Of a stretch of DNA of 64,000 nucleotides, positions 5,104 to 55,919 are shown in pieces. The notes beneath the pieces were generated by a model, which had not been told where the DNA came from, ran no database searches, and saw only the letters and a list, made by a program, of their open reading frames with translations. The position numbers were made by a program, and so were the translations under genes. Source of the stretch: Clostridia bacterium. Lineage in GTDB: Bacteria; Bacillota; Clostridia; Oscillospirales; CAG-272. The stretch spans positions 3,712 through 67,711 of the forward strand of contig JAFWBJ010000107.1 of NCBI GenBank assembly GCA_017507145.1. Direction: 5' to 3'. Each line of letters opens with the position of its first letter. The stretch's first letter is position 1.

Positions 5104-5132
5104 ATTATACGCGCAAAGCCGAAGCTTGTCAA
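5104..5132 (-). promoter_or_regulatory. sigma-A-type promoter for the alpha/beta hydrolase gene
   Basis: On the minus strand: TTGACA (5132-5127), 17 nt, TATAAT (5109-5104). Confidence 0.6.
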
Positions 5133-8111: not shown

Positions 8112-8750
8112 ATGGCAAAAAGCAAACAGAAAAACTCCAACAAATTCTATATTGTCGCGCATAAGCTGGTTGCGCGTACACTGCTCTGGTTCTTCCGCGT
8201 GAAGCTGATCGGCGCCGAAAACCTCCCGGCTGAGGGGGGATACATTTATTGCTCGAACCATATCTGTGCACTTGATCCGATCTTTGTCTGCGGCATTGGC
8301 CGCACGCAAGTGCATTACATGGCGAAGAAGGAGCTCTTCAAGATCCCCGTACTGTCGGCATTGATCCGAGCGCTGGGGGCATTCCCCGTCAATCGCGGGG
8401 GAGCCGACGTCGGCGCGATCCGCCGCGCCATCGAGCTGCTCCAGGCGGGGGAGAGCGTGGGCATTTTCATCCAGGGGCACCGTTACCGCGGTGTTCCGCT
8501 GCGCGAGACCAAGCCCAAGAACGGTGCGATTATGATTGCCGCCCGCGCGGGTGCGCCCATTATCCCGATCTGCGTGAAGATGAAGAACAACACCTTTTCG
8601 CTTTTCCGTCGGGTTGAAATGATCGTCGGCAAGCCCATTATGCCGGAGGCGCTTGGGCTGGAGGATCACGCCGGCGGCGAATTCTCCCGCGCGGCGCAGA
8701 TGGTGTTTGATCAGATTTGCCAGCTGGAGGAGCGTGCCGACCATGCCTGA
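8112..8750 (+). CDS. plsC: 1-acyl-sn-glycerol-3-phosphate acyltransferase
   Basis: NHICALDP (HX4D) motif, FPVNRG, and PIIPI. It lies in the conserved cmk-plsC-ispH order. Confidence 0.8.
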   Translation: MAKSKQKNSNKFYIVAHKLVARTLLWFFRVKLIGAENLPAEGGYIYCSNHICALDPIFVCGIGRTQVHYMAKKELFKIPVLSALIRALGAFPVNRGGADVGAIRRAIELLQAGESVGIFIQGHRYRGVPLRETKPKNGAIMIAARAGAPIIPICVKMKNNTFSLFRRVEMIVGKPIMPEALGLEDHAGGEFSRAAQMVFDQICQLEERADHA

Positions 8751-10770
8751 GCCTCAGATTACGATCGCAAAAAACGCCGGCTTCTGCTTCGGTGTTAAGC
8801 GGGCGACCGACCGTCTGGAGTCACTGATTGCCGAATCGGTCCCCGGGACGCGGATCTGCACACTCGGCCAGCTGATCCATAACCGCATTTATCAGGAATC
8901 GGTGGAATCGCGCGGCGTGCGCGTCGTGGATGCCAATGAAGCCGCTGCCCTGGCCGCCGATGCTGATGCCGAACACCCGGTGGTTGTGCTGATTCGTGCG
9001 CACGGGATCGAACGTGGGGTAGAGGAAATGCTGCGGACGCTTGCCGAACGCAATCCGCATTTTCGGCTGGAGGACTGTACCTGCCCCTACGTCAAGAAGG
9101 TACACCGTATCGCGGCCGAGAACTCGGGCGAGGATCGGATTTTTGTGCTGATCGGTGCCGCAGAACACCCCGAAGTCATCGGCATTATGAGCTATGTGCA
9201 GGGCGAGGGACACGTTTTTGGAAGCGCCGAAGAACTTGAACTGGCAATTCGACGAAACGAATTGGGCGATTTGTACAAAAAGACCGTCGCGATTGCGGCG
9301 CAAACGACCCAAAAACTGTCGGAATGGAAAAAATCAATCAAACTTTTCGAAAACCACTGTACAAATGCCGTAATTTTTGATACAATATGTAGTGTTACGG
9401 AAATTCGTCAAAAAGAGGCCGCAGATCTCTCTGCGCGCTGCGATGGGATGATCGTGATCGGCAGCCCGAACAGCTCCAATACCGCCAAGCTTTATGACAT
9501 TTGCCGCAGCCACTGTGCAGACACCCGCCTCATCGAAACGGCGGCTGATCTGCGCCTAACTGAACCATTTCCGCCTTTCATTCGGCTGGGAATAGCCGCC
9601 GGTGCATCGACGCCGGGCGGTATTATAGAGGAGGTATATAAAACCATGAGCGAAAATTTTGCACAAATGCTCGAAGAATCACTCACTACTTTAAATACAG
9701 GAGATACCGTCAAAGGCATCGTAACCTCGGTTACGAACAGCGAGCTGCAGCTTGACCTTGGTGCCAAGGTTACCGGCATTATCGTGGCTGATCAGATCAC
9801 CGACGATCCTTCTGTAAAGCTGACCGAGACCTATAAGGTCGGCGACGAAATCGAAGCCTTCGTAATTCGCGTCAGCGATCTCGACGGCGTTGCAACCCTG
9901 TCCAAGAAGCGCGTTGATGCCAACAAGAACTGGCAGCTGATTGTCGACGCGCAGGCCAACGATACTGTCCTTGAGGGCAAGATCGTTGAGGCTGTCAAGG
10001 GCGGCGTGATTGCCCTGACCAACGCAATCCGCGTTTTCATCCCCGGCGCGCACACCGGTGTGCCGAAGGATGGCGATCTGACCACCCTCGTTGGCCAGAA
10101 CGTTCGTTTTAAGATCATTGAGATCAAGGACCGCCAGCATCGCGCTTACGGTTCGATGCGTGCAGTTCTCCGCGAGGAGCGTAAGGCACGCGAGGCTGCT
10201 TTCTGGGCAGAGATCGAAGTTGGCAAGCAGTACACCGGCGTGGTCAAGAGCCTGACCAACTACGGTGCATTTGTTGACCTCGGTGGCGTTGACGGTATGG
10301 TACATACCTCCGAGCTGTCCTGGGCACGCATCAAGTCCCCCGCAGATGTCGTTTCTGTCGGCGAGACCCTGACCGTATACGTCAAGGATTTCGATCCTGA
10401 GAAGAAGCGCATCTCCCTCGGCTACAAGACCGCCGAGAGCAACCCCTGGTATATCTTCACCACCAACTATGCAGTTGAGGATATCATCACCGTTAAGGTT
10501 GTCAATATGATGCCCTTCGGCGCATTCGCGCAGATCATCGAGGGTGTCGATGGCCTGATCCACATCTCCCAGATCGCCCAGACCAAGATCGCAAAGCCGC
10601 AGGATGTGCTTGAGCTTGGCCAGGAGGTTGATGTAAAGATCACCGCCATCAACGAGGAGAAGCACACCGTCAGCCTGTCCATCCGCGCTCTGCTGGATGA
10701 TGCTCAGGCTGAAGCTGAGGCCGCTCCCGAGGCCGACGAGATCGTCTACTCTGACGACGCACAGGCTTAA
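8743..10770 (+). CDS. ispH: bifunctional 4-hydroxy-3-methylbut-2-enyl diphosphate reductase (IspH) / ribosomal protein S1 fusion
   Basis: The N-terminal ~285 aa are IspH-like (GFCFGVKRA, IRAHG, SSNT). The C-terminal part carries four S1 repeats (e.g. GVVKSLTNYGAFVDLGGVDGMVHTSELS). The ATG overlaps the plsC stop. Confidence 0.85.
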   Translation: MPEPQITIAKNAGFCFGVKRATDRLESLIAESVPGTRICTLGQLIHNRIYQESVESRGVRVVDANEAAALAADADAEHPVVVLIRAHGIERGVEEMLRTLAERNPHFRLEDCTCPYVKKVHRIAAENSGEDRIFVLIGAAEHPEVIGIMSYVQGEGHVFGSAEELELAIRRNELGDLYKKTVAIAAQTTQKLSEWKKSIKLFENHCTNAVIFDTICSVTEIRQKEAADLSARCDGMIVIGSPNSSNTAKLYDICRSHCADTRLIETAADLRLTEPFPPFIRLGIAAGASTPGGIIEEVYKTMSENFAQMLEESLTTLNTGDTVKGIVTSVTNSELQLDLGAKVTGIIVADQITDDPSVKLTETYKVGDEIEAFVIRVSDLDGVATLSKKRVDANKNWQLIVDAQANDTVLEGKIVEAVKGGVIALTNAIRVFIPGAHTGVPKDGDLTTLVGQNVRFKIIEIKDRQHRAYGSMRAVLREERKAREAAFWAEIEVGKQYTGVVKSLTNYGAFVDLGGVDGMVHTSELSWARIKSPADVVSVGETLTVYVKDFDPEKKRISLGYKTAESNPWYIFTTNYAVEDIITVKVVNMMPFGAFAQIIEGVDGLIHISQIAQTKIAKPQDVLELGQEVDVKITAINEEKHTVSLSIRALLDDAQAEAEAAPEADEIVYSDDAQA

Positions 10771-15157: not shown

Positions 15158-15197
15158 ATGCCGTACCGATCGCCCCCGATCGGTACGGCATGTTTTT
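15158..15197 (+). terminator. intrinsic terminator after the ComEC-like MBL gene
   Basis: ATGCCGTACCGATCG-cccc-CGATCGGTACGGCAT followed by GTTTTT. Confidence 0.8.
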
Positions 15198-16875
15198 ATA
15201 GATCCTGAATTTCGTCCAGATAGTCGTCGATGACGGCACCGTCCTCGATGAGGATGTCTCCGTATGCATCGATGGCGGCTTCATTGATCTGCTCGATGGC
15301 GGCATCCAGCATCAAGCCCATGGCTTTTGCCGCCGTATGCGCATCCGCGGTTCGGCCTGCGCGAATAGCGCGGACAATGTCCGCCAGACCGGCCGCCTGC
15401 AGAGCGGTTGAGAGGGAGTCGGACGAAGCAGGGCAGGGCACGTCCGGCTGCGGCGGCGGTGGCGCGGGCTGAGCCGGCGGCGCCTCCGGAGTCTCTTCCT
15501 CTGGCGCGAATGCTTCGACCAAACGGTGCGTCATCTGCCAGGATGCCCGCTCGATCTCGGCGGCGCGATCGGCCGAGAGGGTGGTGGACAGCGGCTCGTA
15601 GAAGGCGGCATAGCGCTTTTCTTCCTCGGCCTCAGCCCGCTTGGCCGGCGTCAGCGCCACTCTGCGCGGGAGCGCATCGGCCAGGTAGGCATCAACCAGC
15701 GCACGGATATCGTTGGGCAGGGCATAGAGCCCCAGCCGCGACTTGATGCCGAGATAGGCACGCAGGCGATTCTCGGTGTACTTGATGATGTCGGTGACCA
15801 GAAAGCGCAGCTCATGTGAGCGTGTGAAGCAGCAGTAATCCACCTCAATGCGGTATTTGTTCTCATGAGCGCAGAGCGCGCCGCCGAAGGCATCGCGGGA
15901 AAGGTGACTGTCCTGCATGCCGCCGCCCGAGAGCATGTGTTGGGGATTGTCGGCCACCGCCGCTACGACATAGGCCATCGCGCCGTAAATGTGCTTCTCA
16001 TACAGCGCGAGGTTCTCACCGGCCGCGAACTTGCTTTTATGGTAGTCATAGTTCGCGGCAAAGCGGATCAGCGCATCCACATAGCTTCCTCCAGCCGCGC
16101 CGGGGCGGTCCAGCCAGAATTCCTTGAGGGCAGAACCGGCGGCCAGCACCTCGGCCTCTTCTCCCAATGCCGCCGTCGGCGGCGGAAGGTGGTGGATCAG
16201 GCAGTAATCGCAGATCCATTCCCCAAGAAACCGGTCAAGACGGGGATAACGCGCGCGGTAGCCCTGCCAGAGCGCACAAAGGGCGGCAAGTCCCTCCGGC
16301 GGCGGGATCTCGCGGCCGAGATTGATGATTTCATAGAGGTAGAGGAGCAGATAGGTGTAGTCACAGTCGGGGTAAATCCCCTGCCGCACCTGCGAGCGCC
16401 AGTAGAGATACCAGGCAAGCCGGTTTTCGGTTAGCTGTGCATATTGCGGCACATAGGAGAAAAATGGCTCACGCGGGCAGGGAGGGGCATCGACATGGAG
16501 ATAACGCCGCGCATCGGCGACGAAACGCTCATAATAGTTGTAGGCCGACGGCCAGCGGTAGATGCGGACGGTGTGAATCAGCGAGTTCTCGGGCTGATAG
16601 GTGTCGATGGGCGGAGCCTTCTGCCGCACCGCCGCCGTGTCATGCGGGGGGATTGTGCGGTAGACCAGGGGCTGACCTTCGTCGGCAGGCCGCTGGGTCA
16701 GTTTGCGCTCTCCGTCATCAGCGGAGACGGAAGGCGGATCAACTGTCAGCTCGACCGGCTCGGTGGAGTGGGGCTGCGGAGGTGTTGGTGTTCGGCTTTG
16801 CTTGCGTGGAAGCAGTTCATCGATTGTCCAGAAACGGTCAAGCGCATCCTCACGCGATTTATCCTGCGGCATCAT
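15196..16875 (-). CDS. TerB-N / TerB-C domain-containing protein
   Basis: Pro-rich N-terminus. FFSYVPQYAQLTENRLAWYLYWRSQVRQG matches my recollection of the TerB_N core, and the acidic helical C-terminus (INEAAIDAYGDILIEDG...IDDYLDEI) looks TerB_C-like. The assignment comes from motif memory only. Confidence 0.6.
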   Translation of the reverse strand: MMPQDKSREDALDRFWTIDELLPRKQSRTPTPPQPHSTEPVELTVDPPSVSADDGERKLTQRPADEGQPLVYRTIPPHDTAAVRQKAPPIDTYQPENSLIHTVRIYRWPSAYNYYERFVADARRYLHVDAPPCPREPFFSYVPQYAQLTENRLAWYLYWRSQVRQGIYPDCDYTYLLLYLYEIINLGREIPPPEGLAALCALWQGYRARYPRLDRFLGEWICDYCLIHHLPPPTAALGEEAEVLAAGSALKEFWLDRPGAAGGSYVDALIRFAANYDYHKSKFAAGENLALYEKHIYGAMAYVVAAVADNPQHMLSGGGMQDSHLSRDAFGGALCAHENKYRIEVDYCCFTRSHELRFLVTDIIKYTENRLRAYLGIKSRLGLYALPNDIRALVDAYLADALPRRVALTPAKRAEAEEEKRYAAFYEPLSTTLSADRAAEIERASWQMTHRLVEAFAPEEETPEAPPAQPAPPPPQPDVPCPASSDSLSTALQAAGLADIVRAIRAGRTADAHTAAKAMGLMLDAAIEQINEAAIDAYGDILIEDGAVIDDYLDEIQDL

Positions 16876-16889
16876 ATCCCTCCTCGGTC

Positions 16890-16905
16890 AAGGTGTTAAC
16901 ACCTT
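16890..16905. promoter_or_regulatory. perfect 16-bp palindrome AAGGTGTTAACACCTT abutting the -10 box (operator-like)
   Basis: The sequence equals its own reverse complement. It spans roughly -1 to +15 of the TerB-N promoter. Confidence 0.5.
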
Positions 16906-16934
16906 ATTATACCACGGATCGCATGCCCTGTCAA
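16906..16934 (-). promoter_or_regulatory. sigma-A-type promoter for the TerB-N gene
   Basis: On the minus strand: TTGACA (16934-16929), 17 nt, TATAAT (16911-16906). Confidence 0.6.
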
Positions 16935-16954
16935 CGCATACTTTGCCTTCCAAT

Positions 16955-17260
16955 TTACCCCAGCTGCGACAGCGCACGGCAGATCACCCGGCAAATCTCG
17001 ACGAGTACCGCATCAAGCAGCGGGAAATCGGGCCAAAGTTCGGCCAGCTTTTCCTGCAGAAGCGCCAGCAGATGCCGGTCCAGCACGACCGTGCCGACCG
17101 ACAGACGGACGGTGATGCAGCCGGTGCTGACCTCACATACCCGGTCGATCCAGGCCGCGGCGGCTTCTGCGGCAGGGCGAAGCAGAATCAAGAGCCCAAG
17201 CAGCCCCGCCGCAAGCAGAATCCGCCCGGCGATCCCGATCATCGTTTTGATGTTTTTCAC
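16955..17260 (-). CDS. hypothetical small membrane-anchored protein downstream of spoIIP
   Basis: 101-aa ORF 15 nt after the spoIIP stop with an N-terminal TM segment. The RBS is poorly placed and I recognise no family. Confidence 0.4.
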   Translation of the reverse strand: MKNIKTMIGIAGRILLAAGLLGLLILLRPAAEAAAAWIDRVCEVSTGCITVRLSVGTVVLDRHLLALLQEKLAELWPDFPLLDAVLVEICRVICRALSQLG

Positions 17261-17275: not shown

Positions 17276-18553
17276 TCAGCTACCCTTGATCATTTCCGCC
17301 AAGGTCTGCGCGACCAGCTCACCTGCGCGCAGCGCTTCGCCCAGACTGTTTCCGCTGGCCCCGATCTCCAGCAGCAAGGAGAGGGGCCCGAGGTGCTCGT
17401 TGAAGGCCGCCCCGCGCAAATAGACCGGCCGTGCAAAGTGCGGATAGTTCTGATTCAGCGCCTCGCGAAGCTGCAGGGCAAAGGCGAGATTGCGCTCCCA
17501 GTGCGGGAAGACCGCTCCCTTGTAGTCACTGCCGGCCAGAATCATCACCTGCGCCACCGCTTCGCCGTCGATGGCCACGACCGGCTTAACCAGCTCATTC
17601 TCGCCGCGGATCAGCGCATCGCGGTGCACGTCCAATATGTAGGCGATCGACGGATACTCAGCCAGATACGCGCGGATGGTCTCGGCGGCCCGCACATAAG
17701 CATCGCGGTAGGCGCTTTTGTCGTGCAGGATCACACAGTGCAGGGTGGGTACTCCCGACGCGGACAGCACCTCGGCCATGCGCGCGCCGACCGCCACGAC
17801 ATTCTCCTGCGGATCGCTTGAGCGGGCGTAGTCATCCGATGTGGGGTAAGAGATTGCCCCTTCCGGCGAGTAAGCCTCAGTGCCATGCGTGTGCAGGATG
17901 AGCACCAGCGGTTCTCCCGGCGGATAGATCGTGGCCGATGTATAGCTGTAAGACGGCAGAACATCATCCCGCTCGATCAGCGCGGCCAGATCGGGCGTGT
18001 AGGCCGTTTCGTTGCTGATGTAAAGTGAGCCGTACTCGGCCAGACTCAGATCCAGCGGCAGAATGGGCATCTCGCCTGCCGGGACCAGCTCGGGATCGTA
18101 GGCATAAACATCAAGCGGCCTGGCCGAGGCGGCGAGATCTTCTTCGGCGGTGAGCGGCGCAGTCTGGGCCGACGAGGGCGCCTGCGTCGTGTCAGCCAAA
18201 GCTGAATCGGCCGCATCCGGCAATCCCCGCCGCGTACCCGATCGGGGATAGAGCACCTGGCCGATCATCAACTCCAGCAGAGAATCCTCTCCTCGCTCGG
18301 CACCAATGCCGAGCACGCGGGTCAGGATCAGCCGGCGCAGATAGCCGTCTCCGCCATTCTGCATCTTTTGCACGGCTTGGACGCCAAGCAGACTCAAGGT
18401 CAGCAGGGCCGCTGATACCGTGACGCTGCACCACAGCGTATAAGCGCGGCGCAGGCGGCGGAGATGCTGCTGCTCAAGCTGTGGCTCTTGAATGGGTATT
18501 TCATGGGGCGGGGGCAGTTCGGGAATTTCGTTGCTTTGTTTTTGTTCGTCCAT
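17276..18553 (-). CDS. spoIIP: stage II sporulation protein P
   Basis: VLILHTHGTEAYSP...IAYILDVHRDAL...AFNEHL motifs. ATG 18553 follows GGAGGAT. It lies immediately downstream of gpr, as in Bacillus. Confidence 0.85.
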   Translation of the reverse strand: MDEQKQSNEIPELPPPHEIPIQEPQLEQQHLRRLRRAYTLWCSVTVSAALLTLSLLGVQAVQKMQNGGDGYLRRLILTRVLGIGAERGEDSLLELMIGQVLYPRSGTRRGLPDAADSALADTTQAPSSAQTAPLTAEEDLAASARPLDVYAYDPELVPAGEMPILPLDLSLAEYGSLYISNETAYTPDLAALIERDDVLPSYSYTSATIYPPGEPLVLILHTHGTEAYSPEGAISYPTSDDYARSSDPQENVVAVGARMAEVLSASGVPTLHCVILHDKSAYRDAYVRAAETIRAYLAEYPSIAYILDVHRDALIRGENELVKPVVAIDGEAVAQVMILAGSDYKGAVFPHWERNLAFALQLREALNQNYPHFARPVYLRGAAFNEHLGPLSLLLEIGASGNSLGEALRAGELVAQTLAEMIKGS

Positions 18554-18619
18554 CGCGATCCTCCATCCTGTTCGATTTGCGGTCTTGTCCGAGATAAGCA
18601 TATGCGCGGTGGGGGCGGT

Positions 18620-29111: not shown

Positions 29112-29140
29112 ATTATAACATTATCTTGTCGTTTTGTCAA
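29112..29140 (-). promoter_or_regulatory. sigma-A-type promoter for the sugar SBP gene
   Basis: On the minus strand: TTGACA, 17 nt, TATAAT. Confidence 0.6.
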
Positions 29141-29240: not shown

Positions 29241-29269
29241 TTGACAAACCGTGCGAAATCGTGTATAAT
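29241..29269 (+). promoter_or_regulatory. sigma-A-type promoter for birA
   Basis: TTGACA, 17 nt (ending GTG), TATAAT. Confidence 0.6.
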
Positions 29270-31030: not shown

Positions 31031-31059
31031 TTGACAAATCTGCCGCTTTGCGGTATAAT
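31031..31059 (+). promoter_or_regulatory. sigma-A-type promoter for the Xer-type recombinase gene
   Basis: TTGACA, 17 nt, TATAAT. Confidence 0.6.
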
Positions 31060-39590: not shown

Positions 39591-39619
39591 TTGACAGATT
39601 TCGCGTTTTTTCATATAAT
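39591..39619 (+). promoter_or_regulatory. sigma-A-type promoter for aspartate kinase
   Basis: TTGACA, 17 nt, TATAAT, 112 nt upstream of the GTG start. Confidence 0.6.
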
Positions 39620-52933: not shown

Positions 52934-52938
52934 GAAAA

Positions 52939-52984
52939 AACACGCTCCCGCCTTTCTCAAAAGAGATCGGTGGGAGCGTGTTTC
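52939..52984. terminator. hairpin between the beta-helix gene and the tRNA-Arg 3' end
   Basis: AACACGCTCCC...GGGAGCGTGTT with an inner TCTC/GAGA stem. A-run before and T-rich sequence after. Confidence 0.6.
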
Positions 52985-53061
52985 TGGCCCGCCCTACAGG
53001 ATTCGAACCTGCGACCATCGGAATCGGAATCCGGTACTCTATCCAGCTGAGCTAAAGGCGG
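52985..53061 (-). tRNA. tRNA-Arg (anticodon CCG), CCA encoded
   Basis: Hand-folded 77-nt cloverleaf. Acceptor CCGCCUU/AGGGCGG, D-arm GCUC-AGCUGGAUA-GAGU, and anticodon loop UUCCGAU. T-arm GCAGG-UUCGAAU-CCUGU, discriminator G, then CCA. Its own consensus promoter lies just upstream. Confidence 0.85.
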
Positions 53062-53071
53062 CTACCTAAAT

Positions 53072-53100
53072 AGTATACCACAAAATCCCGGATTTGTAAA
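53072..53100 (-). promoter_or_regulatory. sigma-A-type promoter for tRNA-Arg
   Basis: On the minus strand: TTTACA, 17 nt ending TGG, TATACT. The predicted start is only a few nt before the mature tRNA 5' end. Confidence 0.6.
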
Positions 53101-53136: not shown

Positions 53137-53352
53137 TTATCCTTGGTTTTCTTTGTCGATATCCGGTTGAACAGGCTTGCAAGACGCCGAGTCCGTCCTT
53201 TGATGCGGTTGGCTTTTCGGCTTTTCCGTGGAGGGACACTTTTCGGCGGGGGACTCTTCCGCCTGCTCGGCATGTCCCCAATACTTCTCGCGCAGTTCTT
53301 TCGGAAAGTAGTCTTCCGGTTCGACATAGCGAATTTCGATTTTCTTCTTCAT
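53137..53352 (-). CDS. hypothetical small protein (71 aa from MKKK) between the S24 repressor gene and tRNA-Arg
   Basis: ORF in the 335-bp gap. The N-terminus (MKKKIEIRYVEPEDYFPKELREKYW) looks ordered and the rest is Pro/Glu/Lys/Ser-rich. There is no convincing RBS, so coding status is uncertain. Confidence 0.3.
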   Translation of the reverse strand: MKKKIEIRYVEPEDYFPKELREKYWGHAEQAEESPAEKCPSTEKPKSQPHQRTDSASCKPVQPDIDKENQG

Positions 53353-53396
53353 GATGATATGTACAACCTTGGTCAATGCGATTTTTTATCGGTGCA

Positions 53397-54161
53397 TTAC
53401 TTTTGCTTTGCCTTCATGCGCCCGACCACGCGGCCGCAGCAGACGAAGCTGCTGGCCGATGTTACCGGGATGGGAGCATAGGCAGGATTGAGCGAGATCA
53501 GACGGTCGCCGCCCCAAACCTTGACGTAACCCTCGCCGTCCAGAATGAAGATGCCAACCTCACCCTCGCTGACGCTGTCGGTTTGCTCAACCAGAAGCAG
53601 ATCACGGTCGTTGAAGCGGGGCTCCATACTGTTGCCGCTGATGCGCAGCACAAAATCTGCAGCAGGGTTTGCTTCGGCAGGGATAGTGATCGGCTTGGCA
53701 CCGCTGTCCTCGAGATAAGCGCCGGTGCCGGCAGAGACGGGCAGGTGATAGAGGGGAAGGGTGCGCTGATTCCGGACCGTCTTGGGTGGGGACAGGCGGA
53801 TCGCGCGGTGTGCCGACTGCTCGCCGCCGGCCGCCGGTGCATATCCGGCCTCATGCTGTATCAGCAGAGAAACCGCCTTCTGTCCGCGCGCATCCAGGCT
53901 GCGGTACTGTTCGATTAACGAAATCTCGTCGGTGGTGAGGGTGTAGTTATGGGTGTTCTCAGGTGTGCCGTAAACGGCAAAGTCAAGCGAAAGGCCGAGG
54001 GCCTGGCAAATTGCGGTCAGATTGCCCAGCTTGGGTGAGTCGTTCATACCGGCCAGCAGCTTGCTCAGCGTGCCCATCGGTACGCCGCTGACGGCAGAAA
54101 GCTGCTCGTTGGTCATGCCGAGCTCAGCCTTGCGTGTTTTGAGACGAGATACATAATCCAT
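53397..54161 (-). CDS. XRE-family HTH + S24 peptidase (LexA/CI-like) autocleavable repressor
   Basis: N-terminal HTH_XRE (LGMTNEQLSAVSGVPMGTLSKLLAG). Ala-Gly site in LPVSAGTGAYL, Ser in ISGNSMEP, and Lys in GYVKVW. ATG 54161 lies 7 nt after AAAGGGGA. Confidence 0.85.
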   Translation of the reverse strand: MDYVSRLKTRKAELGMTNEQLSAVSGVPMGTLSKLLAGMNDSPKLGNLTAICQALGLSLDFAVYGTPENTHNYTLTTDEISLIEQYRSLDARGQKAVSLLIQHEAGYAPAAGGEQSAHRAIRLSPPKTVRNQRTLPLYHLPVSAGTGAYLEDSGAKPITIPAEANPAADFVLRISGNSMEPRFNDRDLLLVEQTDSVSEGEVGIFILDGEGYVKVWGGDRLISLNPAYAPIPVTSASSFVCCGRVVGRMKAKQK

Positions 54162-54194
54162 GATTTTGTCCCCTTTTGTTCCATTGTTGAACAT

Positions 54195-54223
54195 AGTATA
54201 GCACAAAAATACGGTTTTGTAAA
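54195..54223 (-). promoter_or_regulatory. sigma-A-type promoter for the XRE-S24 repressor gene
   Basis: On the minus strand: TTTACA (54223-54218), 17 nt ending TGC, TATACT (54200-54195). Confidence 0.6.
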
Positions 54224-54230
54224 GAGGTTT

Positions 54231-54255
54231 CGGAAAAATAATTCCGCGATCGGAA
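54231..54255. promoter_or_regulatory. operator-like repeat cluster CGGAA-N6-TTCCG-N4-CGGAA
   Basis: Pentamers at 54231-35, 54242-46 and 54251-55, immediately upstream of the repressor gene's -35 box. Confidence 0.45.
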
Positions 54256-54306
54256 AAATTATTTTTGAAAAAATAAAAAAATATTTCCAAAATAAGAAAA
54301 ATACTA

Positions 54307-54335
54307 TTGACAAACCGAAAAAACTATGCTATAAT
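54307..54335 (+). promoter_or_regulatory. perfect consensus sigma-A promoter for the small membrane protein gene
   Basis: TTGACA (54307-12), exactly 17 nt (ending TGC), TATAAT (54330-35). Confidence 0.65.
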
Positions 54336-54348
54336 AAGGCCAAGAAAG

Positions 54349-54362
54349 TTCCGATAACGGAA
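54349..54362. promoter_or_regulatory. operator-like inverted repeat TTCCG-ATAA-CGGAA
   Basis: It has the same TTCCG-N4-CGGAA architecture as 54242-54255. It lies between the -10 box and the RBS of the small membrane protein gene. Confidence 0.45.
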
Positions 54363-54374
54363 AGGATGGAAATC

Positions 54375-54659
54375 ATGAACAGAACGATCAACCTCAACAC
54401 CGCTCCCCGTCATACGCTCCGCCCCACCTTCGGCGATTGGATGGCATTGCTCTTTGCATGCCTGCGCTGCCTGTTTGCGCACCGTGAGGTCCGCATTGGT
54501 ACACGGGTCTTTTTCGGCGGTACTGCGTTCTTGATGATGCTTGGTGTTGTTGGTGCGATCGAGTGCGGCAGCATGGCCATGCTGCCCGGCGGCCTGCTTT
54601 GTTTGGGCCTGATGGTCGTTTCCTTCCTTATCCTTCGCGGCTTGACCGAGGAGGTCTGA
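54375..54659 (+). CDS. hypothetical small membrane protein (94 aa, 2-3 TM) divergent from the S24 repressor
   Basis: Downstream of a perfect TTGACA-17-TATAAT promoter. ATG 54375 lies 8 nt after AAAGGA (an in-frame ATG at 54366 is too close to the RBS). Hydrophobic segments are FFGGTAFLMMLGVVGAI and LPGGLLCLGLMVVSFLIL. A strong terminator follows. Confidence 0.5.
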   Translation: MNRTINLNTAPRHTLRPTFGDWMALLFACLRCLFAHREVRIGTRVFFGGTAFLMMLGVVGAIECGSMAMLPGGLLCLGLMVVSFLILRGLTEEV

Positions 54660-54711: not shown

Positions 54712-54750
54712 AAAAAAAGACGTCCAACCACAGTTGGACGTCTTTTGCTT
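54712..54750. terminator. bidirectional terminator between the small membrane protein and permease genes
   Basis: AAAAAAAGACGTCCAAC-caca-GTTGGACGTCTTTTGCTTTT, with an 11-bp stem. Confidence 0.85.
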
Positions 54751-54767
54751 TTACCGGTGCAGATCGC

Positions 54768-55919
54768 TCACACAAGGAAGAGCGATACCAGAGTCAGCAC
54801 GCCGAGGAAGCCGAAATTCAGCACGGTGAAGAGCGCAATATAGCTGCGCGTCTTCTCGGGATAATGCGTGGTGTAGATGCGGAAGGTGATGAGACTGGCC
54901 AGCGAAGCGATAAGCGTGCCGGCACCGCCGATATTCACGCCGATCAGCAGGGCGGGGTAGTTTTCGGTGAACTGCGAAAGCAGAATAGCAGAGGGCACAT
55001 TGCTAATGAACTGGCAGGACACCACCGCCGTCAGCAGCGTGCTTTTTTCAAGCAGCATCGAGAAGAGCATGCGGATGGGGGCGATTCGTGACATATTGCC
55101 GGCGAAGATGAAGAAGCAGACGAAGGTCAGCAGAAGCGGGTAGTCGACTTTCTTGAGCGCATCGCGGTCCATGGGAAGCAGGATGGCAAGGGTCAACAGA
55201 ATTCCGATCGGGTAGGGGATAACGCGGAAGACGATCAGAATGGTTGACGCGAAGAGTGCGAGATAAAGCGCCGTCTTGCCGATGGGGAGCTTCTCTTCTT
55301 CGGTGGTTACGACCAGCGGCTCGCGCGGGATGAAGAGGCAGATAAGAAAGATCAGCGCGATCGAAACGGCGAAGGGGAGGGCCATGATGCGCATAAACTC
55401 ACCGTTGGGGATGTTGAAACAGGTGTAGAGATAGAGATTCTGCGGATTGCCGAAGGGGGTGAGCATACCGCCGAGGTTAGCGGCGATGTTCTGCAGAATG
55501 AAGGTCAGCGCCATGTACTTCTCGCGGCCGGTGGAGGAGAGCACCAGATAGCCCAGCGGCAGGAAGGTCAGGAGCGCCATGTCGTTGGCGATGAGCATCG
55601 AGCCGATGAAGGTGATGCAGACCAGCGCGAAGACTGCCGAGCGCGTATTGCCCGCACAGCGCACGATTTTGCGCGCGAGGATGGTGAAAAAGTGCAGATT
55701 TTTCAGTGCGCAGATGACGGCAAGGGTGCAGAAGAGACAGGCCAGCGTTTTGTAATCGAAATAATCGAGATACGCGGCATCGGGGGGGACAAAGATGGCC
55801 GAGAGCGCCGCAGCCAGCATGGCGATGACCAAAACGGCATTTTTGCGGACAAACTCTGCCGGAGAAAAGGGAAGGGACGGAAGATGCGGCTGGCGATGAA
55901 TTCGAACCTGCGATTGCAT
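54768..55919 (-). CDS. ArsB/NhaD-superfamily anion permease (citrate-transporter/SLC13-like)
   Basis: About 10-12 TM segments. IANDMALLTFLP and GGMLTPFGNPQNLYLY motifs. GAGGTAG RBS. Confidence 0.7.
   Translation of the reverse strand: MQSQVRIHRQPHLPSLPFSPAEFVRKNAVLVIAMLAAALSAIFVPPDAAYLDYFDYKTLACLFCTLAVICALKNLHFFTILARKIVRCAGNTRSAVFALVCITFIGSMLIANDMALLTFLPLGYLVLSSTGREKYMALTFILQNIAANLGGMLTPFGNPQNLYLYTCFNIPNGEFMRIMALPFAVSIALIFLICLFIPREPLVVTTEEEKLPIGKTALYLALFASTILIVFRVIPYPIGILLTLAILLPMDRDALKKVDYPLLLTFVCFFIFAGNMSRIAPIRMLFSMLLEKSTLLTAVVSCQFISNVPSAILLSQFTENYPALLIGVNIGGAGTLIASLASLITFRIYTTHYPEKTRSYIALFTVLNFGFLGVLTLVSLFLV

Follow-up and report, generated by a model that had tools for sequence, protein, structure and literature searches.

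A chromosomal CI-type XRE-S24 repressor and a divergent small membrane protein: a conserved candidate switch in Clostridia

The window analysed here is a 64,000-nucleotide stretch of DNA from a Clostridia bacterium (GTDB lineage Bacteria; Bacillota; Clostridia; Oscillospirales; CAG-272; assembly GCA_017507145.1, contig JAFWBJ010000107.1, positions 3,712 to 67,711), in which a gene for a repressor of 254 amino acids (aa) and a gene for a 94-aa membrane protein diverge from a shared intergenic region. We propose, with a probability of roughly 0.55 for the scheme as a whole, that this pair is a chromosomal switch of the CI/HdiR/FddR type, in which an autoregulated, cleavage-inducible repressor drives a stress-induced membrane effector. 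The proposal is carried by the domain architecture and catalytic residues of the repressor, the conservation of the pair and the purifying selection on it, the enrichment, position and phasing of candidate operators, and the chromosomal context; from these we infer site binding, cooperativity, an inducing signal (RecA and DNA damage) and an effector function, with a confidence that differs from one to the next. A literature search for the repressor family or its partner in Clostridia returned no description of either. The coordinates of the features are collected in Table 1.

Results

The repressor belongs to the CI-type XRE-S24 class

The repressor matches two Pfam domains, HTH_3 (aa 10-60, E 4e-9) and Peptidase_S24 (aa 137-246, E 1.4e-19). 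The further N-terminal matches are HTH_26 and HTH_31, and LexA_DNA_bind (PF01726) is not among them. Its top family match is phrog_4 of PHROGs, 'transcriptional repressor' (E 4e-33, aa 5-251), whereas TIGR00498, the NCBI equivalog for LexA, aligns with the C-terminal half only (aa 116-249) and scores 32 bits against a cut-off of 110.95. In the AlphaFold (AF2) model, with a mean predicted local distance difference test score (pLDDT) of 82, a five-helix helix-turn-helix (HTH) domain is followed by two more helices, a linker and a beta-rich C-terminal domain (Table 1). Foldseek superposes the N-terminal domain on 434 Cro and P22 c2 (TM-score 0.85-0.89) and the C-terminal domain on that of LexA (TM-score 0.74, 31% identity) and also on that of lambda CI; the matches of the latter domain include LexA/CI structures solved on RecA filaments. 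Comparison at the level of sequence agrees with these placements.

A preliminary description of this DNA, made from the sequence, had read the N-terminus as an XRE-type HTH rather than the winged helix of LexA and had seen a complete S24 self-cleavage apparatus, and both readings hold. The predicted scissile bond, nucleophile and general base lie in the motifs PVSAGTG, GNSMEP and GYVKVW, respectively, and V142, S143, A144, G145, S178 and K214 show no variation across 24 aligned homologues of 50-74% identity, among which the DNA-binding domain is also extremely conserved. The cleavage loop around Ala144-Gly145 has a low pLDDT, as expected of a flexible loop. The repressor is therefore a member of the CI-type XRE-S24 class, in a co-opted chromosomal subgroup, and not a LexA. 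The term 'non-canonical LexA-like' used in that description was right in setting the protein apart from LexA but not in implying an oddity, as an XRE-HTH joined to S24 is the ordinary architecture of phage CI, HdiR and FddR. Members of the family are currently labelled 'helix-turn-helix domain-containing protein' or, wrongly, 'repressor LexA'.

The segment that follows the HTH (aa 66-107, window ~53841-53966) is a strongly conserved two-helix extension with the pattern PENTHNYTL..EI.LIE.YR.LD..G. Stand-alone HTH proteins corresponding to aa 1-104 of the repressor, at 37-47% identity, are present in viral contigs (L087-L090). Foldseek also aligns the HTH and two-helix half with SinR (1b0n_A), a structural match that may point to a helical element for oligomerisation or for binding an antagonist.

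The pair is conserved across species and under purifying selection

Homologues of the repressor number 2416 at E<=1e-10, and relatives turned up in 337 genomes when each GTDB species was represented by one genome. Among the best 80 of these 337, the sources are uncultured metagenome-assembled genomes (MAGs) labelled Clostridia, Eubacteriales or Oscillospiraceae (with 2 Lachnospiraceae and 2 Clostridium sp.), mostly from ruminant or human gut, and the closest representative repressor is 72% identical, so that the source species is not among the representatives. Across species, repressor identity ranges from 47% to 74%. The contigs that carry repressors 74%, 67% and 53% identical to ours each hold a divergent gene of 93-106 aa without a Pfam domain, whose products are 57%, 40% and 26% identical, respectively, to the 94-aa protein.

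A profile hidden Markov model (HMM) was built from the recovered small proteins and searched against the six-frame open reading frames (ORFs) of the related loci. It detected the small gene in 61 of the 87 repressor loci, or 57 of 81 when only non-redundant loci with enough upstream sequence are counted. Wherever found, the small gene lies directly upstream of and divergent from the repressor gene, with 170-420 bp from start to start. In the reverse direction, three clusters of small proteins led to six places, all six of which have a neighbour with HTH_3 and S24 domains, and the small gene was never found without the repressor. This phylogenetic profile, a check that the preliminary description had called for, bears out the pairing and indicates that the two-gene regulatory module is genuine.

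The small ORF is under purifying selection: across 42 pairs, the ratio of non-synonymous to synonymous substitution rates (dN/dS, Nei-Gojobori) reaches at most 0.33, with a median of 0.15, a substitution pattern that marks the gene as translated and constrained. An in-frame ATG further upstream, at 54366, is not conserved in relatives. The impression that the small protein might be an orphan, given by a word-index search with 1 match (one cluster) and by phmmer with 5 representatives, did not survive recovery of the family through the neighbours of the repressor and the profile; the single-sequence searches misled because the family evolves fast. None of the 44 profile matches carries a name or a Pfam domain.

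Candidate operators bracket both promoters

The promoters of both genes have a TG extension. The elements of the repressor promoter (TTTGTAAAG and TATA..) are conserved in relatives, and the small-gene promoter scores 12/12 in 54 of 55 non-redundant related loci. The preliminary description had taken the latter as a sign of very strong expression unless repressed. The promoter is indeed a perfect TTGACA-17-TATAAT; the argument from exceptional strength is weakened, as the window contains 7 exact copies of this consensus, and 11 with at most one mismatch, against 0.12 expected by chance (at most one mismatch). Perfect sigma-70 consensus promoters are unusually frequent in the source genome (~57% GC) and in its relatives, and the promoter alone is therefore no mark of an exceptionally strong drive of the small gene.

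Four candidate operators, O1 to O4, lie in the intergenic region of 213 bp (Table 1; scored with a position weight matrix, PWM). The exact palindrome TTCCG-N4-CGGAA occurs in the 64-kb window only at O1 and O3. Over the non-redundant loci, exact TTCC-N6-GGAA has a density of 2.56/kb in the 330 bp upstream of the repressors and of 0.052/kb elsewhere, an enrichment of ~49-fold. This motif differs from the Firmicutes SOS box, GAAC-N4-GTTC. The inverted repeat between the -10 element and the ribosome-binding site (RBS) of the small gene, to which the preliminary description had drawn attention, corresponds to O1 and is confirmed as an operator-like element; its centre lies ~20 nt after the -10. 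Of 55 loci, 39 have an operator centre 19-20 nt past the -10, and 41 have one at 19-22 nt. O2 was recovered as repeat family D1 and has equivalents in loci L002 and L005. The position of O3, ~80 nt from the repressor ATG, is kept in relatives, loci without the small gene included, and a site resembling TTCC-N6-GGAA stands at the O4 position in L002, L025, L010 and many others. Whether or not the small gene is present, TTCC-N6-GGAA sites thus keep their positions around the repressor promoter, a pattern in the DNA that points to autoregulation.

The conserved layout comprises one site at the repressor -10, one ~60 bp upstream of its start, one upstream of the small-gene -35 and one past its -10. 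From centre to centre, the spacings in the window are 63 bp (O4-O3), 43 bp (O3-O2) and 64 bp (O2-O1); across loci, 85 of ~130 intervals measure 62-64 bp, with the others mainly near 31, 42 and 52 bp. These spacings are close to whole helical turns, so that each promoter would lie between two sites that share a face of the helix. From the phasing of the sites we infer that repression may be cooperative and possibly looped.

The repeat in the 5' untranslated region was also considered as an RNA element; Rfam gives tRNA only, and the position of the repeat is tied to the -10 and not to the RBS. That it is fixed relative to the -10, and that it recurs upstream of promoters, favours a DNA operator. 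Beyond the intergenic region, the PWM scan of the window gave no other site of at least 12 bits. A strong match that recurs ~1070 nt past the repressor start (in L038, L039, L066, L070 and L041) was rejected as a regulon operator. This sequence, TTCCGATTTCGGAA, is found at L038 5068, L066 5072, L039 1152, L070 2399 and L041 1554, mostly in loci without the small gene, within a conserved 280-aa ORF just downstream of the repressor, where it codes LSDFGNE; since it sits in conserved coding sequence, it was treated as coincidental.

The small-gene unit ends at a bidirectional intrinsic terminator, in agreement with the strong terminator of the preliminary description. An A-run precedes a perfect 14-bp stem (54715-54746, 100% complementary) with a 4-nt loop, which is followed by the U-tract UUUUGCUUUU (TTTTGCTTTT for the feature 54715-54756). 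The predicted fold of the 101-nt stretch has a free energy of -36.7 kcal/mol (z = -4.2).

Table 1. Features of the repressor/small membrane protein module and positions in the window (aa, residues of the repressor).
Feature	Position	Strand	Basis or remark
Repressor gene, 254 aa	53397-54161	minus	ORF and domain matches
XRE/434-type five-helix HTH	aa 1-65		AF2 model
Two further conserved helices	aa 77-107		AF2 model
Disordered linker	aa 112-126		AF2 model
S24 LexA/CI-type beta-rich C-terminal domain	aa 132-250		AF2 model
Lys214 codon, predicted general base	53520-53522	minus	read from sequence
Ser178 codon, predicted nucleophile	53628-53630	minus	inside the S24 domain match
Ala144-Gly145 codons, predicted self-cleavage bond	53727-53732	minus	read from sequence
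O4, weak candidate operator, TTCCATTGTTGAAC	54179-54192	.	PWM 9.4 bits; 3 bp from repressor -10, over likely transcription start
Repressor promoter, TTTACA-17-TATACT, TG extension	54195-54223	minus	consensus scan 10/12
O3, candidate operator, TTCCGCGATCGGAA	54242-54255	.	exact palindrome; PWM 19.4 bits; ~60 bp upstream of repressor transcription start
O2, candidate operator, TTCCAAAATAAGAA	54285-54298	.	PWM 25.0 bits, best of the window; just upstream of small-gene -35
Small-gene promoter, TTGACA-17-TATAAT, TG extension	54307-54335	plus	consensus 12/12
O1, candidate operator, TTCCGATAACGGAA	54349-54362	.	exact palindrome; PWM 17.3 bits; between small-gene -10 and RBS
Small membrane protein gene, 94 aa	54375-54659	plus	ORF; divergent from repressor gene
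Bidirectional intrinsic terminator, where the small gene and the CitMHS transporter gene converge	54715-54756	.	inverted repeat I5
Exact TTGACA-N17-TATAAT sites	5104-5132, 16906-16934, 29112-29140, 29241-29269, 31031-31059, 39591-39619, 54307-54335		

The partner is a new family of small membrane proteins

Searches of Pfam, PHROGs, NCBIfam and PADLOC gave no match to the 94-aa protein. Its AF2 model, computed from 45 sequences (mean pLDDT 72), has three helices (aa 19-35, 42-63 and 69-93), which span aa 19-93 of the 94 residues; a Foldseek search of the model against the PDB returned generic helical hairpins only, all at E>1, and thus no informative structural neighbour. The partner represents a new family of membrane proteins with two or three helices, in line with the earlier reading of a protein with two to three transmembrane (TM) segments and no recognisable domain. 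A reading of the pair as a defence system was set aside, as PADLOC has no match for the repressor or for the small protein.

The charge distribution was computed over 55 family members. Lys and Arg are found in the N-tail (mean K+R 3.3, net charge +1.0), in the loop between helices 1 and 2 (1.4, +1.2) and in the C-tail (2.5, +1.95), and are nearly absent from the 5-residue loop between helices 2 and 3 (0.07, net charge about 0), the sole loop free of K and R. By the positive-inside rule, helices 2 and 3 would therefore pair as a hairpin, the short loop facing outward and the two ends lying in the cytoplasm. Helix 1, hydrophobic to only 71%, represents a third span or else an amphipathic helix within the cytoplasm. 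Conserved positions comprise G57, G60, E63, G65 and G72, with E63 in 84% of the members. A second Glu, at window position 83, is present in 85% of the members; the subfamily of the window has Ser there and an acidic C-tail.

The pair lies in ordinary chromosome

The window reads as ordinary chromosome, with cmk, an ispH-S1 fusion, spoIIP, gpr, an oligopeptide-binding protein gene, mutY and recQ, as well as ABC transporters, HAD phosphatases, a sigma factor and an Xer-like recombinase 22 kb from the pair. The preliminary description had seen no phage genes around the pair and had considered it possibly domesticated. The flanks are housekeeping genes, with no phage genes within ~10 kb on either side, and the setting is chromosomal and not phage-like. 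A search of 2.9 million viral contigs, dependent on peptide patterns, gave no full-length relative of the repressor, the matches being HTH-only (aa 1-104, up to 47% identity) or weak and S24-only. GenBank has 389 phage records with a full-length CI-type relative, Streptococcus, Staphylococcus and Clostridium phages among them, and identity nowhere exceeds 33.5%. In the phage records, nothing matches the small protein.

In most relatives the pair stands beside spoIIP and gpr, while in the window these two genes are ~35 kb away, so the pair has relocated as a unit; neither the window nor L002 has it next to spoIIP any longer, and both retain the two genes together. Relative to the CitMHS gene, the pair is inverted between the window (53397-54659; CitMHS 54768-55919) and L002 (5501-7985), the gene convergent with CitMHS being the small gene in the former and the repressor gene in the latter. 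The CitMHS proteins of the two loci are 86% identical and the repressors 74%. Weak inverted repeats flank the pair in the window, at 53331-53345 and 54805-54819 (15 nt, 80%).

Several neighbouring features were recorded. Most relatives have the pair after spoIIP and a ~105-aa gene; its place next to spoIIP (17276-18601) is taken in the window by a gene for a 559-aa TerB_N/TerB_C protein (15196-17260, minus), which matches the PADLOC model SngA of the Shango defence system (E 2.9e-53), with no SngB- or SngC-like helicase or ATPase evident next to it. A tRNA-Arg(CCG) gene lies 335 bp beyond the repressor stop (52985-53061, minus side), with its 3' end facing away from the pair, its own promoter TTTACA-17-TATACT (53100..53072), and directly downstream a 21-nt inverted repeat (52938-52983), probably its terminator. 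Between the repressor stop and this tRNA, a 79-aa ORF (53137-53376, minus) was rejected as part of the module: its 71-aa ATG-start form (53137-53352) gave no family match and the 79-aa form no tblastn match in the related loci, and it is probably no gene, or a species-specific one. Elsewhere, a 705-aa ORF (8653-10770, plus) joins LytB/IspH to three S1 RNA-binding domains, an ispH-rpsA-type fusion.

Discussion

A model for the switch

In the repressed state, dimers of the XRE-S24 protein would occupy the TTCC-N6-GGAA palindromes of the intergenic region, with O4 and O3 bracketing the repressor promoter, which would give autoregulation, and O2 and O1 bracketing that of the small gene. Placed on one face of the DNA, and probably cooperating through their S24 domains, the dimers would keep both promoters shut. 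A signal, most likely RecA on single-stranded DNA after damage, would stimulate self-cleavage at Ala144-Gly145 by the Ser178/Lys214 dyad and part the DNA-binding half from the oligomerising half, with loss of repression. The consensus promoter would then give a monocistronic transcript for a small inner-membrane protein, a two-helix hairpin with an outer loop free of K and R and a third hydrophobic helix before it. Its role would most likely be that of a transient checkpoint, which inhibits septal cell-wall synthesis or division as do the small membrane proteins encoded next to Gram-positive repressors.

The steps of this model are not equally secure. It is very probable that the TTCC-N6-GGAA sites are bound by the repressor, which thereby controls its own gene and represses the small one, and self-cleavage is probably the inducing step. 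RecA and DNA damage as the trigger have slightly better than even odds, while a block of division by the effector is a tentative suggestion, with the odds somewhat against it. For the effector, membrane permeabilisation (below) is less likely than a division block, and some other role takes up the rest of the probability.

Several observations weigh against the proposed switch. O4 is weak in the window, at 9.4 bits. No additional operator was found near DNA-repair genes, of which the available sequence holds almost none, and the relatives (the best 80 of 337) are uncultured MAGs throughout. About 30% of the repressor loci lack the small gene and keep the repressor promoter, O3 and O4; the repressor is therefore not dedicated to the small gene but maintained for more, and it may have other targets or another role. 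The intramembrane Glu and Gly motifs of the effector would suit a pore-former or toxin. The 94-aa protein, with two to three membrane helices, almost no extracellular domain and no LysM, also departs from the build of YneA, SosA, ChiZ and DivS, considered below. Finally, the S24 regulators IrvR and PrlP respond to other signals or are cleaved independently of RecA, a departure from the rule of RecA and DNA damage (PMC7101444, PMC12273997).

Relation to known systems

FddR of Francisella is a chromosomal CI-type HTH and S24 regulator with a divergent gene of unknown function (PMC13148647). It shares with the repressor of the window this architecture and chromosomal location, the Ala-Gly, Ser and Lys residues, a palindrome in its own promoter region (autoregulation, here a likeness of sequence) and the divergent, clade-conserved unit with one uncharacterised gene. 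The two differ in phylum and repressor lineage, in operator (GTG-N11-CAC versus TTCC-N6-GGAA), and in the up to four phased operators and small polytopic membrane cargo found here; FddR has the support of RNA sequencing and electrophoretic mobility shift assays, whereas the module described here is a prediction from sequence. HdiR of Lactococcus and Streptococcus and the non-canonical LexA of Bacteroidetes are likewise co-opted chromosomal XRE/CI-type S24 regulators (PMC8565304), alike in the XRE/CI-type N-terminus, the self-cleaving S24 domain, the role of a chromosomal repressor for stress or DNA damage, and a likely phage origin. The targets of HdiR are umuC-type mutagenesis cassettes or recA, and those of the Bacteroidetes proteins make up a full SOS regulon (PMC8565304); neither set has a known counterpart here. 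There is no close sequence relationship either: the best matches in phage records, Streptococcus phage repressors included, are 29-33.5% identical.

The preliminary description had likened the pair to lexA/yneA of B. subtilis and lexA/sosA of S. aureus. The Gram-positive SOS division inhibitors YneA, SosA, ChiZ and DivS are small membrane proteins encoded divergently from lexA, with one TM segment and an extracellular C-terminus, and with LysM in YneA and ChiZ (PMC6851548). They have no mutual sequence similarity, so that gene position is the usual clue to them. The likeness stands for gene geometry, as a small membrane protein gene diverges from that of an S24 self-cleaving repressor, with a candidate operator over the small-gene 5' untranslated region; it fails for the build of the protein, which is not single-TM with an extracellular C-terminus, and the neighbouring repressor is not LexA, lacks the winged helix and has an operator other than GAAC-N4-GTTC. 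Caulobacter SidA and DidA are very small intramembrane inhibitors that act on FtsW and FtsN, and a mostly membrane-embedded division inhibitor is therefore possible.

With the CI repressors of lambda, 434 and P22 (phrog_4), the repressor shares the two-domain fold and the presence of several operators between divergent promoters, one pair of which would serve autoregulation; cooperative binding through the C-terminal domains, as in CI repressors, is plausible. It differs from them in not being in a phage and in having as partner a membrane protein, followed at once by a terminator, instead of Cro. The lambda OR operators are adjacent, at ~24 bp, whereas the sites here are ~63 bp apart and bracket each promoter.

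Alternative explanations

The same switch might drive a membrane-permeabilising effector, toxin- or holin-like, that depolarises or perforates the membrane and leads to dormancy or persistence, as SOS-induced TisB-type peptides do, or to altruistic lysis. We hold this to be unlikely. In its favour, the 94-aa protein is almost wholly embedded in the membrane in 2-3 helices, conserves G57, G60, G65 and G72 together with two acidic residues in or near the membrane (E63 and Glu at position 83), and appears tightly repressed from several operators. Class I holins have three TM segments, an N-out/C-in orientation and a charged cytoplasmic C-tail; the three helices, the short positive C-tail of most members and the loop 2-3 free of K and R permit such a reading, against which stand the Lys and Arg of the N-tail, the modest hydrophobicity of helix 1 and, in the window subfamily, the loss of the second Glu and the acidic tail. 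Neither an endolysin nor any other lysis gene is adjacent to the pair in any locus examined, the phage records and PHROGs hold no match, and no antisense RNA or type I-like translational brake was found (Rfam, tRNA only). That the pair is instead the remnant of a prophage or integrative element, an immunity region with a cI gene and a first early gene and without host function, is very improbable. The phrog_4 match, the full-length CI-like relatives in Streptococcus, Staphylococcus and Clostridium phages, the HTH-only relatives in viral contigs and the tRNA-Arg gene 335 bp away are what one might expect of such a remnant; yet no phage repressor exceeds 33.5% identity, the viral contigs hold no full-length relative (by the same pattern-dependent search), selection acts on both genes, which are conserved in species whose repressors are 47% to 74% identical, the flanks are housekeeping genes, the small gene is followed directly by the terminator of the unit, the 3' end of the tRNA faces away from the pair, and the only integrase-family gene is the Xer-like recombinase 22 kb off.

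Two further alternatives concern the role of the repressor and its signal. The repressor could be the main DNA-damage regulator of the clade, in place of LexA, the small gene being merely the nearest member of its regulon. For this unlikely case speak the precedent of the Bacteroidetes (PMC8565304), the occurrence of the family in 337 species-level genomes, usually in the same gpr-spoIIP neighbourhood, the extreme conservation of the DNA-binding domain and the fact that loci devoid of the small gene retain the repressor with its own operators. Neither the window nor ~720 kb of related loci contains a canonical lexA, although such scattered sequence, less than 1 Mb, says little about whole genomes; canonical LexA is usual in Clostridia. 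In 723 kb, GAAC-N4-GTTC occurs 12 times against ~11 expected, with no core SOS gene within that sequence. On the repressor side, TTCC-N6-GGAA is absent upstream of the MutY and RecQ genes, the repair genes of the available sequence, and the strongest extra PWM matches fall in conserved coding sequence. It is also conceivable, but improbable, that the repressor responds to something other than DNA damage, be it a developmental cue or stress (envelope, acid, heat or oxidative), with cleavage constitutive or protease-assisted and the small protein part of an envelope-stress or sporulation-linked response. XRE-S24 regulators that are RecA-independent or stress-responsive do exist in IrvR and PrlP (PMC7101444, PMC12273997), HdiR responds to heat too (PMC8565304), the output is a membrane protein, and in most species the pair lies beside the sporulation genes gpr and spoIIP. 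That adjacency is, however, lost in the window and L002 with the pair intact, the small gene has a sigma-A-type promoter rather than a sporulation-specific one, every element of the complete cleavage apparatus is invariant, and the C-terminal domain superposes on LexA/CI domains solved with RecA filaments.

Implications

The proposal of a CI/HdiR/FddR-type switch admits a bolder version, which we consider unlikely: a domesticated CI-type repressor, and not LexA, would be the principal DNA-damage sensor of these uncultured gut Clostridia, the partner a new class of polytopic damage-induced effector, and the operators a loop-clamped all-or-none switch. In that case, the effector could be either an intramembrane division inhibitor acting on the septal synthase or a controlled membrane-permeabilising factor for suicide or dormancy.

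The module is compact (1.4 kb), self-contained, widely conserved and easily testable, and the regular 63-64-bp phasing of its operators at two promoters makes a clear prediction of cooperative or looped repression. It also offers a gain in annotation, as the partner has neither a name nor a Pfam domain in the sources searched. If the proposed switch is real, a large uncultured lineage of Firmicutes would join the short list of those with domesticated phage-type S24 chromosomal switches (HdiR of Streptococcaceae, Bacteroidetes, FddR of Francisella), and the unannotated family of small membrane proteins tied to it may represent a new type of damage checkpoint or toxin.

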